DNA of 64,000 bases, from NCBI GenBank assembly GCA_903872035.1, contig CAIQIZ010000029.1:479-64478 (forward strand), given 5' to 3'. How positions within the stretch are numbered: the first letter of the stretch is position 1; each line of letters starts with the position of its first letter. Source of the stretch: an uncultured bacterium (lineage in GTDB: Bacteria > Patescibacteriota > Minisyncoccia > Phycocordibacterales > PALSA-1337). Shown here piece by piece: positions 11,718-32,135 of the stretch. The notes below the pieces were generated by a model. That model worked only from the letters and a program-made list of their open reading frames with translations, searched no databases and was not told the origin of the DNA. A program made the position numbers and the translations under genes.

Positions 11718-12704
11718 TTAGCTCCTACTCAACGCCAACTCGATGACATGATCAACCAGCTCATACGTGTCGCTGCCGACAGCGCGAAGAGCTTTGGGCA
11801 TGAGAGATTCGCCGGTCAGACCTGGCAAAGTATTCACTTCAAGCACATAGATCCCCCGCCGCGGATGGATGATGAAATCAGAACGGGAATAGTGGCGCAA
11901 ACCGAGCACTTGGTGGATCTTTCGCGCCAGGCTCTCGATGGCACGCTTGAACATATCTTGAAAAGTAGCGGGCACGATCTCTTGGGACATGCCTTGATAC
12001 TTGGCTTCGTAGTCGAAGAACTTGGTCATGGGACGGATCTCTATGGGTGGCAAGGCATACAATTCCTGGCCACGAAATCCTTCGATGACGCCACAGGTCG
12101 CTTCGATGCCTGGAATGAATTCTTCTATCATGACTGAATCAGAATGGAGAGAGGCCGCCTTCAAAGCTTCGGGCAATTCGTTGTAATAGATGACCTTGGT
12201 CACGCCGACCGACGAACCGCTTGCCGTTGGTTTGACGATGGCTGGCATAAGAAAGGAATGAAATAGATCGCCTGCAACATTTGTCGTATTATCCCTGATC
12301 AACGCTGATGGAATCTCCCTGCTGTAAGGCGAACGAATGCCATGATCCTTGAAAGCCTTCTTAGACAATACTTTATTCATTCCCACAGCCGAGCCTAATG
12401 AACCGCTTCCGGTAAAAGGCAAGCCGTGTGCCTCCAAAAAAGCCTGAACTTTTCCATCTTCGCCATAGGCGCCATGTAAGGCATTGAAAGCCACGTCGAT
12501 ATGTTTTGATGCGTCAGATGGCTGGATCGGGACGCCATTCATATGCCAAATGCCATTCTTATCAATAAAAACGTCACAGGCCTCGTACTTATCACTAAAT
12601 CGATCCTTGAGCACAGACAATACTGCCGCTCCGGAATTCAACGACACCTGGTATTCATTCGATGGCCCTCCGCGCAAAACGCCGACACGTGTGTGGTGAT
12701 TCAT
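11718..12704 (-). CDS. ddl: D-alanine--D-alanine ligase
   Basis: ATP-grasp fold. 'AFNALHGAYGEDGKVQAFLEAHGLPFTGSG' and the C-terminal 'EVNTLPGLT' motif. Confidence 0.9.
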   Translation of the reverse strand: MNHHTRVGVLRGGPSNEYQVSLNSGAAVLSVLKDRFSDKYEACDVFIDKNGIWHMNGVPIQPSDASKHIDVAFNALHGAYGEDGKVQAFLEAHGLPFTGSGSLGSAVGMNKVLSKKAFKDHGIRSPYSREIPSALIRDNTTNVAGDLFHSFLMPAIVKPTASGSSVGVTKVIYYNELPEALKAASLHSDSVMIEEFIPGIEATCGVIEGFRGQELYALPPIEIRPMTKFFDYEAKYQGMSQEIVPATFQDMFKRAIESLARKIHQVLGLRHYSRSDFIIHPRRGIYVLEVNTLPGLTGESLMPKALRAVGSDTYELVDHVIELALSRS

Positions 12705-26255: not shown

Positions 26256-27269
26256 CTATCTTTTGGAAATTATCGACTTCTTGTACATATCCAAATGTTC
26301 GAGAGCGATGCCAGTCCCCTTCACCACACAAAGCAAAGGCTCCTCGGCCAATTGCGCTTTGACGCCAGTCCTGCGAAAAACCAATTCTGGCAGATTGCGT
26401 AGCAAGGAGGAACCGCCGGTCATGATGATACCCTGATCTATGATGTCGGCCGCCAATTCCGGTGGAGTCTCTTGAAGCACATCACGAACAGCTCTGATCA
26501 TATCGCGGAGTGGCGCGGCGATGGCTTTGACGATCTCATTGGTCTTGATCTCCGTCGAGCGTGGCAGACCGGAAAGGTAATCACGTCCTTTGACATTCAT
26601 GGCCAATTCCTGATCGAGCGGCACAGCTGAACCGATATTTATCTTAATGATCTCGGCCATGTGATCTCCGATGGCCAGATTGAAAGTCCGTTTGACGTAA
26701 TCAGCAATGGCCGCATCAATTTTGTTGCCAGCAACTTTGACAGAAGTCGACGAGACGATGCCACCGAGCGATATGACGGCAACATCTGTCGTACCACCGC
26801 CGATATCGATGACCATGTGACCTTTGGCCTCATGGATGGGAATGCCTGCGCCGATAGCCGCGAGGACTGGTTCCTTGACTACATAAGCGTTACGAGCTCC
26901 TGCGCGTATTGTCGCTTCGATGACCGCCCGTCGCTCGGTTGAAGTTATAGATGCTGGAACAGAGATCATGACTTCTGGTTTGAAAATATTGAAACGTCCC
27001 AAAGCTTTGTCGATGAAATAGCGGAGCATGGCTTCGGTCACCCGGTAGTCAGCAATGACTCCGTCGCGCATCGGTCGATAGGCGATGATGGTATCCGGAG
27101 TGCGGCCGATCATCTCCTTGGCATCATTCCCGACCGACAGAACTTTTTTGTCTACCTCCGAAACAGCCACGACCGATGGTTCATTGAGAACGATACCCTT
27201 ACCAGGCACAAATACCAAAGTATTGGCGGTTCCCAAGTCTATGCCCAATTTTGGCGAGAAAATGCTCAT
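26256..27269 (-). CDS. mreB: Rod-shape-determining protein MreB
   Basis: Actin-like ATPase. 'GIDLGTANTLV' and 'DIGGGTTDVAVIS'. Likely start MSIFSPK at 27269. Confidence 0.9.
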   Translation of the reverse strand: MSIFSPKLGIDLGTANTLVFVPGKGIVLNEPSVVAVSEVDKKVLSVGNDAKEMIGRTPDTIIAYRPMRDGVIADYRVTEAMLRYFIDKALGRFNIFKPEVMISVPASITSTERRAVIEATIRAGARNAYVVKEPVLAAIGAGIPIHEAKGHMVIDIGGGTTDVAVISLGGIVSSTSVKVAGNKIDAAIADYVKRTFNLAIGDHMAEIIKINIGSAVPLDQELAMNVKGRDYLSGLPRSTEIKTNEIVKAIAAPLRDMIRAVRDVLQETPPELAADIIDQGIIMTGGSSLLRNLPELVFRRTGVKAQLAEEPLLCVVKGTGIALEHLDMYKKSIISKR

Positions 27270-27497
27270 GAAGTTGAATACTAGCACAATTTTCCGCGAG
27301 GTGAAGCCCAGCGGCAAGCCTCGCGGACTTTCGCGGGGTGAGACCTCGACGGATTGAGCCGCATTTTAGGCACGCGATATCCGCTAACTATTTGACAAAT
27401 TCCAATTACTATGCAGAATGAGATATTGGGAGTGTCGAGCGTACCTTGGCACTTTGAAACAGACAGAACAACAAAAACCTACGGAAATTGAAGAAAT

Positions 27498-28424
27498 ATG
27501 AAAAGACCATTAATGGTGTTGGTACTAACAATTGCGACTATTACCGGCGTTCAAGGTGCTGGGGCCCAATCGAGCGCGGTTAGCATTGTCGTGGATTCGT
27601 GGCAGAACAACCACGACGGATGGAGCCAAGTATGTGACGATCCGATCCCGCCGTCACTGTCCCAGTCACATTACACGCACGCAGGCATTGATTCTTCCGT
27701 GTTCACCTGGTATTCGACTACCGGCGAAGCGAACTATGCTGCCACTGGCAACAAGACATACACGTCCGGGACTCAGAACATCTTCACGACAGACGACGCA
27801 GCACGTTATGGGATAACAATACAACAAAATGTTACCACGTGGTCCGATACGTCGGCATCCGGTAAGACGCAGACTTCTAAACTTGGACCCGCGGCCGGCA
27901 ATATGACCACGGTTCCAGTGTATAGCGCTCCAGGAGCAACGACAGACTACTCGCATTATAACGGCCAGTGCAGCTCCTCCTACGATGCCTATGCCGATCA
28001 TAACATCACTTTGGTCGGCTACTCATATTCAGTGACTGCCAATACGACCGCGGCGCTTCGTCTACTTTACGGTGCTCCGAACAGGACTTACAACGTTACC
28101 ATCTCAGTTGGCCTGAGTGGTTGGCGATTGGCTGATAGCCGTGAACAAGTCTCGCCGGGTAAATGGTGGAATCCGCAGGCCATCGTCAATACCGGCCCGA
28201 TTCCTGCTAGCTCTATCACTTTGAACGGCGGTATAGGCCTGGACAATTCGGGACAAACTCACATTATTATGACGTCAGATTCCCGGGGTAACGCTGTCAC
28301 GCAAATTAAACCGACCTCACCTGCCAGTGCTACTACGGTCTGGAGCGTCAACGTCCTTGGCATAGCCGATGCTGGTCCGGCGGTGCAGACTACATCATCA
28401 GCACCGGCACCTTCCACGAACTAG
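27498..28424 (+). CDS. Secreted hypothetical protein (signal peptide, Thr/Ser-rich)
   Basis: Signal peptide MKRPLMVLVLTIATITGVQGAGAQ. Own terminator. Confidence 0.55.
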   Translation: MKRPLMVLVLTIATITGVQGAGAQSSAVSIVVDSWQNNHDGWSQVCDDPIPPSLSQSHYTHAGIDSSVFTWYSTTGEANYAATGNKTYTSGTQNIFTTDDAARYGITIQQNVTTWSDTSASGKTQTSKLGPAAGNMTTVPVYSAPGATTDYSHYNGQCSSSYDAYADHNITLVGYSYSVTANTTAALRLLYGAPNRTYNVTISVGLSGWRLADSREQVSPGKWWNPQAIVNTGPIPASSITLNGGIGLDNSGQTHIIMTSDSRGNAVTQIKPTSPASATTVWSVNVLGIADAGPAVQTTSSAPAPSTN

Positions 28425-28463
28425 CCTGTTCGCTCGAGTTGTACGATTACAAATCTCCACAAA

Positions 28464-28490
28464 CTCCGTCACTAAGTGACGGAGTTTTTT
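28464..28490 (+). terminator. Intrinsic terminator
   Basis: ctccgtcac-taa-gtgacggag followed by tttttt. Confidence 0.65.
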
Positions 28491-28627
28491 GTATCCGAAT
28501 AGCCGTCGAGGATACCGGCGACCCGTCATGAAATATATCCCCAGCCAGCATTGCTGGCTTATCGCATATATGCTATACTAGACAAACAACCAAGATGTAA
28601 CATTATTATATATAAACAATCACCAAA

Positions 28628-30151
28628 ATGAAGACAAATTCATCGCTTACACAGATCGGATCATCTATCGCCAGATCACGTGAAGACCGCGGACTTACAC
28701 AGGCTGTTCTGGCCAAGAAGATAGGCACCACTCAGAGCGTCATCGCCCGCATAGAGAACGGCGAGCAGAACATCTCCACCAAGACCATGGCCAGGCTTAG
28801 CAAAGCTCTCGACCGGGAGATCATGAGCCTCTCCAAAGCGGGAACTATCAATTTCAAGATCGAAGGAGGACACGAGCTCAAGGGCCAGATCAAAGTCAGA
28901 GCCTCGAAGAACGGTGCCATCGGAGTCATGTGCGCTTCTCTTTTGAATAGCGGGGTGACAACCATAAAGAGTGCGCCACGGATCGAGGAGGTCTACAGAA
29001 TCATCGAGGTATTCAAGTCGATCGGTGTACGCACCGAATGGAAAGGTGGCGACTTGGTCATCAAACCGGCAGCCAAGCTGAATCTCAGCCGGGCTGAATA
29101 TTATTCGGCTCCTCATACTAGAGGCGACATCATGCTAATCGGACCATTGGTGCACAGGTTTAAGACTTTTAAGGTGAATCAACCCGATGGCTGCCGTCTG
29201 GGTTCTCGAACCGTCAAACCTTATTTCTATGCGCTGGAAAAGCTCGGCGTGACGATCGAAACGACATCGAAGCACTACGAGGTCCGCCATGACGGCTTGA
29301 AGAAGGATAAAGAGATAATCATGTATGAAGCCGGTGACACAGTCACTGAAACGGTCATCATGGCCGCTGCCCTAATCCCTGGTCAGACGACCATCAAATT
29401 CGCTTCAGCAAACTATCAAGTTCAGGATGTCTGTTTCTATCTAGAACAGCTCGGCCTAAAGATAGACGGGATCGGAACTTCCACTATGACGATCCACGGC
29501 CAGAGCAAAATAGACAAAGATATCGAATATCATCTAGGTGAAGATCCCATAGAAGCGATGTCTCTCATCGCCGCGGCCATCGTCACAAGATCCGGTATCA
29601 CTATAGAGCGATGTCCCATCGATTTTCTGGAATTGGAACTGCTGAAGCTTGAGAAGATGGGCTTCAAATACAAGATCGTGAAGAGATACAAAGGAGAAAA
29701 TGGCAGGGTAAATCTTGTCGACATCGAGACTTCCCCTTCAAAGCTGATAGCTCTGGCAGAAAAGATCCACGCTCTCCCCTATCCAGGCATAAATATGGAC
29801 AACCTCCCATTCTTTGCCTTGATCGGCGCCTTCGCTACTGGAGAGACTTTCATACATGATTGGGTCTATGAAGAACGCGCCATCTACTACAAGGAGCTAG
29901 ATAGGCTAGGTGTAGAATCCATTCTGGCTGACCCGCACCGCTTCTACGTGAAGGGCCCAGCTAAACTCAAGCCGGCAGAAGTCGTCTGCCCGCCAGCACT
30001 ACGTCCATCAGTCATCATCATGCTGGCTATGCTAGCCATCCCCGGGACTTCTATACTTCGGAACGTCTACAATATCAATCGCGGATATGAAGACCTGGCC
30101 GCTAGACTGAATAAACTCGGTGCAAGGATAGAGACTTTCCGAGATCTCTAA
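28628..30151 (+). CDS. murA: UDP-N-acetylglucosamine 1-carboxyvinyltransferase with an N-terminal XRE-family helix-turn-helix domain (fusion)
   Basis: Residues ~1-65 form a Cro/C1-type HTH (LTQAVLAKKIGTTQSVIARIENGEQNIS). The remaining ~430 aa align to MurA: ASKNGAIG, active-site loop 'QPDGCRLGSRTV' with Cys, and 'NINRGYEDLAARLNKLGARIE'. No stop codon separates the two parts. Confidence 0.8.
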   Translation: MKTNSSLTQIGSSIARSREDRGLTQAVLAKKIGTTQSVIARIENGEQNISTKTMARLSKALDREIMSLSKAGTINFKIEGGHELKGQIKVRASKNGAIGVMCASLLNSGVTTIKSAPRIEEVYRIIEVFKSIGVRTEWKGGDLVIKPAAKLNLSRAEYYSAPHTRGDIMLIGPLVHRFKTFKVNQPDGCRLGSRTVKPYFYALEKLGVTIETTSKHYEVRHDGLKKDKEIIMYEAGDTVTETVIMAAALIPGQTTIKFASANYQVQDVCFYLEQLGLKIDGIGTSTMTIHGQSKIDKDIEYHLGEDPIEAMSLIAAAIVTRSGITIERCPIDFLELELLKLEKMGFKYKIVKRYKGENGRVNLVDIETSPSKLIALAEKIHALPYPGINMDNLPFFALIGAFATGETFIHDWVYEERAIYYKELDRLGVESILADPHRFYVKGPAKLKPAEVVCPPALRPSVIIMLAMLAIPGTSILRNVYNINRGYEDLAARLNKLGARIETFRDL

Positions 30152-30170: not shown

Positions 30171-32135
30171 ATGAACATCATCACGGTCATCCCGCTCACC
30201 CGATCAAAGGTGGCGTCCGAGCTTACTTACTTTACCGGCTCCGTTGTACCAGTCGGCGCTATAGTCTCAGTGCCTCTACGCTCAAAAACCATCCATGCCA
30301 TCGTCACGAAGAGCCAGAACGCCGAGGATCTGAAGATAGATATCAAGAATGCTCCATTCGAGATACGCAAGCTCGGCAAAGTCAAAGCCACCGTCTTCTT
30401 CCCTGCTTCATTCATAGAAGCTTGCGGCATCGTGGCCGAATCATACGCTACAACTATGGGAGCCGTCATAGATGCCGTGGTGGCCGATACTCTCATGCAA
30501 AACGCCGCCAAGATATCTCCACCTCTTCCAAAGCAACCGAGCCTGAGCATGGACACTCCAATACCAACAGAGGTATTACCGACAAGGATTGCACCAAAGC
30601 CAAAGGCAGAATCAGAACGGGTCTTCGCTGTACAAGGAGACGATCAAGACCGCATAAGCTCATGGCGTAGCCTGATCCGTCAGGAATTCGCCAGAAAGAA
30701 ATCTATTGCCATGTATGTGCCAACCATCGAAGATGGACACAACCTTTTCCGAGAATTAGAAAAAGGTATCGAAGGCTACATATTCGTTTTACACAGCGGC
30801 CTTACTCCCAAAAAGGTAGTCGAGACATGGCGCACGATCGCTGAAACCGATCACCCGGTCGTAATTATAGCAACCGGCTCATTTTCCATAATGCCCCGCG
30901 GCGATATAGAGACAGTTATAATAGAACGAGAGAACAATCGCGGTTGGATCGGACAAAGGGCCCCATATCTAGATCTTCGCTACGCCCTTGAAATGATCGC
31001 TCGTCGCAGCAGACAAACCGTCTTCCTGGGCGATAGCTTCCTACGAGTTGAAACTCTGAACCGCTTGGACAACGACAGTATATATCAAGGCTCACCTTTC
31101 AAGTGGCGATCTATCTCCAACGCTCGCGATTCGCTGGTCGACATGAAATCATTCCAGGCGGTAAACAAGGCCGTGAAGAATGACTTCAAGGTCATATCAC
31201 CGAACCTGGCAGATTTGATCCGCCTCAATCGAGAAGAGAGTACGCATATGTTCATATTCGCTTTGAGACGAGGACTTTCTTCCATGACAATTTGCGACGA
31301 CTGCGAAACCGTCATCACTTGCCGGAACTGTTCAACACCGGTCATATTGCACACATCGACGACATCAGGCAAGAACTTCTTTATGTGCCACAAATGCGGC
31401 GAGAGACGCAGCGCTGAGGAGATGTGTGTAGTCTGCGGCGGTTGGAGACTGACCCCGCTCGGCATCGGCATAGACCGAGTCGCCGAAGAGCTCAAGGCGC
31501 GTTTCCCGGAAACAGATGTCTTCCAAATAGACGCCGATGTGACCAAGACGCCGAAGCAGATCGAGGACGCATTGCTAAGATTCAAGAATAAACCAGGGAG
31601 CATCCTTCTTGGCACAGAAACTGCCCTGCTTCACCTCGCCGAAAAAGTCGAGCATGTCGCTGTGACTTCCATGGACAGCTTGTTCGCTTTGCCAGATTTT
31701 CGCATCCAAGAAAAGATCATGTACATGCTCATCCGACTGCGCGCACAAGCCATGCGTTCGATCGTGGTCCAAACCCGCAAACCAGAGGAAAAAGTCTTTG
31801 AATACGGACTCAAAGGAAATCTAAGCGATTTCTATCGTCTTACACTTGAAGAGCGTAAAAGATTTAAATATCCTCCATTCTCCGTTCTCATTAAGTTAAC
31901 GATCGAGGGTAAGAAGGACGCTATAGCCGAAGCTATGGTCAAGACCCAAGAAGCCTTACTGCCATACGAGATAGATGTCTTCCCCGCCTTCACGGCCACC
32001 GTCAAAGGAAATTCTATCATCCACGGCCTGCTCAATGTGGAGACTCATTCCTGGCCTGATCCAGTCCTTATCGGAAAGCTACGCTCCTTGCCGCCGAACG
32101 TCATGGTCAAAGTCAATCCCGAGACGTTGTTGTGA
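30171..32135 (+). CDS. priA: Primosomal protein N' (PriA)-like, with degenerate helicase motifs
   Basis: PriA zinc-binding cysteine cluster 'CDDCETVITCRNCSTPV...CHKCGERRSAEEMCVVCGG' and C-terminal domain. Walker A is replaced (QGDDQDRI where GxGKT is expected) and no DExH box is present. Confidence 0.65.
   Translation: MNIITVIPLTRSKVASELTYFTGSVVPVGAIVSVPLRSKTIHAIVTKSQNAEDLKIDIKNAPFEIRKLGKVKATVFFPASFIEACGIVAESYATTMGAVIDAVVADTLMQNAAKISPPLPKQPSLSMDTPIPTEVLPTRIAPKPKAESERVFAVQGDDQDRISSWRSLIRQEFARKKSIAMYVPTIEDGHNLFRELEKGIEGYIFVLHSGLTPKKVVETWRTIAETDHPVVIIATGSFSIMPRGDIETVIIERENNRGWIGQRAPYLDLRYALEMIARRSRQTVFLGDSFLRVETLNRLDNDSIYQGSPFKWRSISNARDSLVDMKSFQAVNKAVKNDFKVISPNLADLIRLNREESTHMFIFALRRGLSSMTICDDCETVITCRNCSTPVILHTSTTSGKNFFMCHKCGERRSAEEMCVVCGGWRLTPLGIGIDRVAEELKARFPETDVFQIDADVTKTPKQIEDALLRFKNKPGSILLGTETALLHLAEKVEHVAVTSMDSLFALPDFRIQEKIMYMLIRLRAQAMRSIVVQTRKPEEKVFEYGLKGNLSDFYRLTLEERKRFKYPPFSVLIKLTIEGKKDAIAEAMVKTQEALLPYEIDVFPAFTATVKGNSIIHGLLNVETHSWPDPVLIGKLRSLPPNVMVKVNPETLL

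Follow-up and report, generated by a model that had tools for sequence, protein, structure and literature searches.

The HTH-murA gene and its promoter dyad

The stretch analysed here, called the window throughout, comprises 64,000 nucleotides (64 kb) of contig CAIQIZ010000029.1 from an uncultured Patescibacterial bacterium, and it carries a gene, here termed HTH-murA, in which an XRE/Cro-C1-type helix-turn-helix (HTH) domain precedes MurA, the enzyme of the first committed step of cell-wall synthesis. An initial annotation had read this gene as a single open reading frame (ORF) of 507 amino acids (aa) joining the two domains, with the catalytic Cys loop intact, and both points are borne out. 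Pfam places HTH_3 (PF01381) at aa 15-64 (E 8e-14; 51.9 bits against a cutoff of 23) and EPSP_synthase (PF00275) at aa 79-491 (E 3e-42; 145 bits against a cutoff of 22.8), NCBIfam assigns the C-terminal body to a MurA subfamily, and the loop is present as QPDGCRLGSR. Upstream lies an 18-bp dyad that overlaps the putative promoter of the gene. Taken together with the comparison of related loci, these features make it likely that HTH-MurA is a bifunctional protein, at once MurA and autorepressor, of the kind called a "trigger enzyme". The gene and its control region are laid out as follows.

28461..28487, plus strand: intrinsic terminator of an upstream 308-aa ORF, with a 12-bp stem plus T-run (13-nt perfect inverted repeat); 5' boundary of the murA unit
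28551..28556, plus strand: putative weak -35 element TTGCTG, 17 nt 5' of the -10 hexamer, found by reading; a 3/6 match to TTGACA that the promoter scan does not report
28560..28577, no strand: 18-bp dyad TATCGCATATATGCTATA, the predicted operator, from the palindrome search; overlaps the promoter spacer and the -10 element
28571..28579, plus strand: extended -10 element TGcTATACT, read from the sequence and formed by the right arm of the dyad
28628..30151, plus strand: HTH-MurA coding sequence, one unbroken ORF with an ATG start, 507 aa plus stop
28655..28819, plus strand: XRE/Cro-C1-type HTH domain, aa 10-64 (Pfam HTH_3, helices of an AlphaFold2 (AF2) model, PDB matches, and a ratio of nonsynonymous to synonymous polymorphism (pN/pS) of 0.24)
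28733..28756, plus strand: predicted recognition helix, aa 36-43, QSVIARIE (AF2 helix 36-43), with Thr35 directly before it
28820..28849, plus strand: short linker, aa 65-74 (10 residues), of low AF2 confidence (pLDDT), containing the non-conserved Met66
28823, plus strand: internal MSLSKAG, which begins at Met66 (ORF reading)
28850..30148, plus strand: MurA domain (UDP-N-acetylglucosamine (UDP-GlcNAc) 1-carboxyvinyltransferase), aa 75-507 (NF006873, PDB MurA, AF2 and template-modelling (TM) score)
29192-29194, plus strand: TGC codon of the catalytic Cys189, inside the Cys loop
29996-29998, plus strand: codon of Ala457, at the position of E. coli D369 (alignment)

The initial annotation implied that such a fusion is a rarity. 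The N-terminal extension is in fact shared among relatives of this MurA, both domains being present in 119 of the 120 best database matches (69-100% identity). Among species-representative genomes, a scan recovered 78 full-length fusions. Their sources are Paceibacteria/Parcubacteria/Taylorbacteria, Uhrbacteria, Saccharibacteria (Nanosynbacter among them) and Actinomycetota, the last represented by Streptomyces, Kitasatospora, Knoellia, Brachybacterium and Actinopolymorpha. A further scan, of metagenomes, was aimed at the dead paralogs described below; 79 of the 80 sequences it returned are catalytic fusions and hence serve as an independent replication set, for ~157 full-length fusion loci overall. 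Patescibacteria commonly have this architecture, and it is found as well in Streptomyces and other Actinomycetota, under database names that read plain MurA. A stop or frameshift between HTH and MurA, which the initial annotation had envisaged for orthologues, was seen in none of them. No PDB entry covers the fused architecture, the PDB fold search giving plain MurA only.

In a neighbour-joining tree of the MurA domain, all intact fusions fall into one clade, with losses of the HTH nested in its Paceibacteria part. In this distance tree the Actinomycetota branch within the Patescibacterial radiation, where their sister is a Saccharibacteria group, a position that is compatible with, and hints at, transfer between Saccharibacteria and their Actinomycetota hosts.

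Orthologues in every lineage are preceded by a dyad with the consensus geometry TATnnCAnnnnTGnnATA, in intergenic sequence that is otherwise not conserved. It reads TATAGCAtataTGCTATA in Paceibacteria, TATATCAnnnnTGATATA in Saccharibacteria, TATACCAcataTGGTATA in Uhrbacteria and, in a GC-adapted form, TATCTCAtatcTGAGATA in the Actinomycetota (about 70% GC), whose fusions with this dyad occupy loci L039-L082 (including L047 5435-9515 and L078 3635-9515). Across genomes of ~30-75% GC the geometry is constant and the outer TAT/ATA and CA/TG steps are fixed as sequence, the inner bases being lineage-specific. Counting as a match any site with at least 11/12 positions, the dyad is found within -130..+30 of the gene start in 64/80 genome loci, as against 9 matches in the remaining ~1.14 Mb (an enrichment of ~600-fold). 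In the independent metagenome set, 66/79 fusions have it. The exact Paceibacteria dyad is a single site in each locus that carries it, and TATCGCATATATGCTATA is the sole match at this threshold in the window.

In Paceibacteria the dyad stands 30-75 nt 5' of the start codon. In Nanosynbacter (L025) its right arm yields a perfect TGaTATAAT, 7 nt before the ATG, and in Streptomyces a TAGCCT hexamer sits at a distance equivalent to that of the Nanosynbacter -10; these two spacings point to leaderless transcription, with the operator placed over the -10 element. The dyad also goes with the HTH. Two HTH-less relatives (L012 and L014; 68-70% identical and nested in the Paceibacteria clade) are without a dyad, and no separate upstream HTH gene was found at either locus. 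Moreover, residue 35, directly before the recognition helix, tracks a base of the dyad: G stands at dyad position 5 in 15/15 cases with Thr35 and in 0/117 with Ser35. Compared across the loci, then, the dyad behaves as a gene-specific, promoter-overlapping and HTH-dependent element that co-varies with the recognition helix, and it is predicted to be the operator of HTH-MurA's own HTH.

Several points weigh against this reading. With a -10 element for its right arm, the dyad could owe some of its conservation to the promoter; this would not be the whole story, because the left arm is mirrored and because residue 35 co-varies with the dyad. The co-variation may in turn go back to one evolutionary event, and only two loci make up the HTH-less control. 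Approximately 15-20% of fusion loci have no match at 11/12 or better, many of these holding weaker variants. Within the window no second dyad of at least 11/12 positions occurs, including near ddl or mreB, which leaves a wider regulon unproven here. Finally, the AF2 model is of a monomer and bears on neither dimerisation nor allosteric coupling.

Some further palindromes were noted in passing. A perfect 8+8 palindrome, AGCCAGCAtTGCTGGCT, at 28543-28559, lies directly 5' of the dyad and overlaps the putative -35 element; the scan calls it terminator-like, on the minus strand. As a candidate operator it was dropped, being absent at that position from every other locus. At L142 (2264-2868) a dyad stands 11 nt 5' of a 191-aa AAA_33 P-loop kinase-like ORF that directly precedes the fusion gene, and no further dyad stands at the fusion gene itself, a single case that suggests an operon of kinase and HTH-murA. 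A variant type of dyad, TATAACTnnnnTGTTATA, is seen 5' of a dead paralog in L084 and again at L157 5501-5518, between mreB and a 116-aa ORF; L157 is a Paceibacteria contig with the standard dyad at its fusion gene. The variant may mean a second, related operator specificity.

The MurA body and its dead paralogs

The MurA-like body bears the marks of an enzyme. Residues 75-504 score above the cutoff of the MurA subfamily NF006873 (311.8 bits against 297), and the solved structures closest to the body in a PDB sequence search are MurA enzymes (E 6e-52). The AF2 model of the window protein (pLDDT 87.6, built on 120 homologs) predicts for the body a two-domain inside-out alpha/beta barrel, and Foldseek matches it to PDB MurA with E 5e-37 and target-normalised TM scores of 0.88-0.91; the linker stands apart, with pLDDT below 50 at aa 67-71. 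Residues K94, N95, R165, C189, R194, D391, R417, R459 and R485 are all kept here and invariant in the ~157 fusions. They align with K22, N23, R91, C115, R120, D305, R331, R371 and R397 of E. coli MurA, the PDB alignments being in agreement with the E. coli sequence used. By these features the C-terminal body is probably a catalytically competent MurA. Only one MurA-like gene is present within the window.

The rival that survives best, though an unlikely one in our estimation, holds instead that the protein is mainly a transcription factor whose MurA-like body serves as a ligand sensor, with a housekeeping MurA elsewhere in the genome. Two features of the body speak for it, and by the same token leave full MurA activity less than certain. 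The window protein falls below the cutoff of the murA equivalog TIGR01072 (302.3 bits against 392.7), and the position of E. coli D369, Asp in 11/11 canonical MurA sequences compared, is occupied by Ala457 here and by Ala or Gly in all of the subfamily, HTH-less relatives included. The E. coli D369N enzyme, however, keeps activity and has a lowered fosfomycin sensitivity, so that Ala457 is no argument for inactivity. The clade with Ala or Gly at this position may differ in its sensitivity to fosfomycin.

A third feature is that the Streptomyces fusion appears to be a second copy of MurA. It is divergent to an aconitase gene, and because this arrangement matches the pair SCO5999 (acnA) and SCO5998 ("MurA2") described in S. 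coelicolor, without mention of an HTH (PMC12161575), the synteny suggests that the Streptomyces fusion is SCO5998.

The fourth is the existence of dead HTH-MurA-like paralogs next to a separate, real MurA. A deep representative search yields full-length HTH plus MurA-like proteins down to ~33% identity, and the dead ones keep a near-unchanged recognition helix (TSQSAVARIEKGEQNLT) and have lost catalytic residues, C189, R194 and R165 among them. Their scores, 189 and 235 bits, are below the NF006873 cutoff of 297. P0143 and P0129 are the two that could be assigned to contigs, and their loci share a layout in which murB and an HTH-less murA are read in one direction and, across 60-85 bp that contain a dyad, the HTH-MurA-like gene is read in the other, followed by ddl and/or a Mur ligase gene (L164 3768-8001; L165 7532-14295; also L166); dead paralogs stand upstream of ddl and murF. 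The dyads at the P0143 and P0129 loci are TATAACATATATGCTATA and TATATCATATATGATATT, with a consensus TTGACA beside TATATCATATATGATATT. The adjacent HTH-less MurA passes the MurA cutoff, and its named relatives are Collierbacteria, WWE3 and other Patescibacteria. P0143 and P0129 look like pseudoenzymes turned local regulators of peptidoglycan-precursor genes in Microgenomates/WWE3-like Patescibacteria. Because they sit, like a local transcription factor, beside precursor genes with a dyad, they point to a regulatory role of the HTH that is independent of catalysis.

The same paralogs tell against a sensor-only role for the window protein, for the catalytic residues that are invariant in the fusions are quickly lost in them. 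In addition, HTH-less proteins occupy the same locus in related Paceibacteria, where they are presumably the enzyme, and the other Patescibacterial MurA type, that of the dead-paralog loci, has no Paceibacteria or Saccharibacteria names among its best 120 matches. The NF006873 score, too, favours an enzyme.

The family can then be described in four states, namely bifunctional fusions such as that of the window, enzyme-only proteins (L012, L014 and P0121), a decayed HTH (P0125) and the regulator-only pseudoenzymes. P0125 (529 aa), a MurA of this subfamily that is intact in its catalytic residues, has an N-terminal extension that can be aligned with the HTH but has lost the conserved recognition-helix residues, and this extension looks like a decaying HTH. 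A different MurA-fold fusion is seen in P0201 (1204 aa), where a C-terminal MurA-like domain (aa 737-1198) stands behind a long unrelated N-terminal region and, by eye, appears to have no Cys loop.

The HTH domain, the dyad and the start codon

The next rival, which we consider quite improbable, takes the HTH as a module for protein interaction or localisation, for example by RodZ-like binding of MreB, with the dyad left as a promoter element or the site of some other regulator. RodZ binds MreB through an XRE-like HTH, mreB is the immediate divergent neighbour of the fusion in close relatives, and the right arm of the dyad does double as an extended -10 element. The domain itself, on the other hand, resembles DNA-binding repressors. 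The AF2 model gives it four helices (aa 6-20, 25-32, 36-43 and 51-61), Pfam matches it to HTH_3, HTH_31 and HTH_19, and the RodZ-type HTH_25 is absent from the Pfam matches of the window protein at E up to 0.01. Unlike RodZ, with its transmembrane segment and periplasmic domain, the HTH here leads directly into the cytoplasmic MurA body. The nearest solved structures in the PDB search are HipB (E 2.7e-6), the 434 repressor and C.AhdI, which bind their operators as dimers. Against the 434 repressor the alignment is gapless at an offset of 8, which puts Q36, S37 and R41 on its base-contacting Q28, Q29 and Q33; Q36, S37, A40, R41 and E43 are each 99% conserved among the 120 homologs. The domain is predicted to dimerise and to bind the dyad. 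The dyad, for its part, is symmetric beyond the -10 element, is missing in HTH-less relatives and recurs at murB and at the dead paralogs, besides following the recognition helix. The fusion is found, moreover, in Brachybacterium and Knoellia, members of the Micrococcales, which often have no MreB.

The palindrome might also act as RNA, as a hairpin in the 5' leader that controls attenuation or translation, in place of a DNA operator. The repeat is perfect, its inner positions change in compensatory fashion, and the Paceibacteria spacing leaves room for a leader. We nevertheless give this reading a very small chance. The TAT/ATA and CA/TG steps are fixed in sequence and not just in pairing, the RNA stem would be AU-rich and only ~7 bp long, and the leaderless spacing in Saccharibacteria and Streptomyces, with the right arm at -10, would place the dyad 5' of the transcript. 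The presence of the dyad depends, too, on a DNA-binding domain in the adjacent gene.

The initial annotation raised a further possibility, an annotation trap in which translation starts at the internal Met66, the HTH frame goes unexpressed and the product is an ordinary MurA. A GGGAG stands 3 nt 5' of the Met66 codon, and no obvious Shine-Dalgarno sequence precedes the first ATG. The GGGAG, however, stems from conserved Arg-Glu codons and lies too near the ATG, and position 66 is Met in only 16 of the 120 homologs (Val in 73, Ile in 19, Leu in 9). The HTH domain is conserved across three lineages and is constrained to the same degree as MurA: column entropy averages 0.75 in the HTH against 0.69 in MurA over the 120 homologs, pN/pS is 0.24 and 0.22, respectively, over nine Paceibacteria sequences, and for 26 of 26 invariant HTH residues more than one codon is in use. 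This is purifying selection at the protein level, equal to that on MurA. Met66 as the conserved start is thereby ruled out, and the trap as a whole strikes us as barely credible; a minor Met66 isoform may exist in this one organism and would not be the conserved product.

That a sequencing or assembly error joined two genes, or that the gene is split, is ruled out for practical purposes, and nothing was found in support of such an error. A protein identical to that of the window has entries in 47 collection blocks from independent samples, of which 20 contigs were read; the same in-frame architecture recurs in the ~157 loci, which stem from different projects and phyla; and most genome-scan fusions have an in-frame stop just a few codons 5' of the HTH start. 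Judged by sequence comparison, the HTH-MurA fusion is genuine, translated and conserved.

Proposed control and known systems

The initial annotation had suggested that the fusion could autoregulate cell-wall synthesis. This idea now has comparative evidence behind it, in the dyad on the gene's own promoter, the co-variation with the HTH and the loss of the dyad where the HTH is missing; binding itself stands as a prediction. In the mechanism we propose, a dimer of the HTH would bind the 18-bp dyad over the extended -10 element of its own promoter and, so bound, would block RNA polymerase, giving negative autoregulation of murA and a steady level of MurA. Repression is favoured over activation because the dyad overlaps the -10 element. 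Binding to DNA, dimer formation, the direction of regulation, catalysis and any modulation by ligands (UDP-GlcNAc, phosphoenolpyruvate (PEP) or UDP-N-acetylmuramic acid (UDP-MurNAc)) are predictions in this scheme.

The neighbouring genes bear on how far such control might reach. The initial annotation had also placed mreB and ddl in the window, and both are found there.

30171..32135, plus strand: priA-like gene, after a 19-nt gap from HTH-murA (PriA_3primeBD match)
26256-27317, minus strand: mreB (MreB_Mbl, E 1e-134)
~11775-12695, minus strand: ddl (tblastn, E 2e-30)

Because the gap is 19 nt and no terminator was found between the two genes in the window, HTH-murA and the priA-like gene are probably co-transcribed, and repression would then probably reach priA as well; priA is 3' of the fusion in Paceibacteria relatives too. 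Between mreB and HTH-murA the window holds the 308-aa ORF (27498-28424), with a signal-peptide-like N-terminus, a Ser/Thr-rich composition and no Pfam family match. In close Paceibacteria relatives (L007, L015 and L012) mreB is directly divergent to the fusion locus, at 80-90 nt in L007 and L015; given this arrangement, the dyad in L007 and L015 would lie in a control region shared by mreB and the fusion.

In one Saccharibacteria lineage (L027, L028, L029, L032 and L034) a second perfect dyad, TATATCATGAGTGATATA, precedes the murB ATG by 8 nt, at a distance of ~5.5 kb from the fusion (region L027 2485-3539). With 343.5 bits this murB clears the NF000755 equivalog cutoff (277), and its dyad is kept among the loci of the lineage while their upstream flanks differ. 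Outside the lineage no full murB dyad was found, half-sites at most, and a murB operator as a general feature of the family was rejected. In some lineages, then, the proposed control may extend to murB or to the divergent mreB.

It is tempting to go further and suppose that binding of substrate or product to the MurA body modulates DNA binding, a speculative idea that the dead, sensor-like paralogs make attractive. In its fullest form the proposal would run as follows. HTH-MurA would be a ligand-responsive trigger enzyme in which the open or closed state of MurA, set by UDP-GlcNAc, PEP and the feedback ligand UDP-MurNAc, gates the HTH dimer on the dyad; the protein would itself read the precursor pools and adjust transcription of murA and, in certain lineages, of murB, mreB and ddl-murF; the family would be a full evolutionary series; and its spread would include transfer between Saccharibacteria and Actinomycetota. 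Taken jointly, this chain of claims is one we put forward tentatively, and doubt that it will hold in every part.

A full-text literature search found no description of the HTH-MurA fusion, its operator or the dead paralogs. HTH-MurA may thereby add to the first committed cell-wall step a kind of control not described before. If so, a direct transcriptional feedback loop would be built into the enzyme, an economical arrangement for Patescibacteria, whose genomes are tiny and poor in regulators. The hypothesis is directly testable, as the same protein and operator occur in cultivable, tractable organisms such as Streptomyces, Nanosynbacter and other Saccharibacteria. The dead paralogs beside murA-murB would illustrate how, in nature, an enzyme can turn into a dedicated regulator, and the predicted operator offers a handle for rebuilding cell-wall regulons in uncultivated bacteria.

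With the canonical MurA enzymes (those of E. coli and E. cloacae, and MurAA and MurAB of Gram-positive bacteria) HTH-MurA shares the fold (TM ~0.9), the catalytic residues and the Cys that is the target of fosfomycin. It differs from them in the extra 74 residues of HTH and linker, in an identity of only ~30%, and in the Ala at the D369 position. The known control of MurA is post-translational, through ClpCP/ReoM proteolysis, PASTA-kinase signalling and feedback by UDP-MurNAc.

The predicted operator resembles that of HipB, TATCC-N8-GGATA, an 18-bp dyad with which the HTH-MurA dyad shares its TAT...ATA geometry (PMC3376134). HipB, the 434 repressor and C.AhdI are autorepressors at their own promoters, as is proposed here, but are free proteins of 70-90 aa, whereas the present HTH is joined to a 430-residue enzyme. 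Identity with the HipB antitoxin was rejected, the window protein scoring below cutoff for both TIGR03070 (42.8 against 71.65) and NF007271 (26.5 against 79). Nor does a HipA toxin gene adjoin HTH-murA in the window, where the neighbours are the 308-aa ORF and priA.

The series from bifunctional protein to enzyme-only forms (L012, L014 and the HTH-less MurA beside the dead paralogs) and regulator-only forms (P0129, P0143) recalls that of Gal1 and Gal3 in yeast. This is an analogy only: the proteins are unrelated, and the bacterial HTH-MurA has its own DNA-binding domain, whereas Gal3 acts via a partner protein.

Functionally, HTH-MurA probably belongs with the trigger enzymes, among which, as far as we have found in the literature, no peptidoglycan enzyme has been placed. 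The biotin ligase-repressor BirA, NadR and PutA likewise combine an enzyme with a DNA-binding domain, and in HTH-MurA the predicted operator on a promoter of its own pathway would imply feedback control. There is no homology to these proteins, an EPSP-synthase-fold MurA being joined here to an XRE HTH, as compared with, for example, the winged helix of BirA. For BirA and PutA, effector-dependent DNA binding is established; for HTH-MurA it is a proposal.

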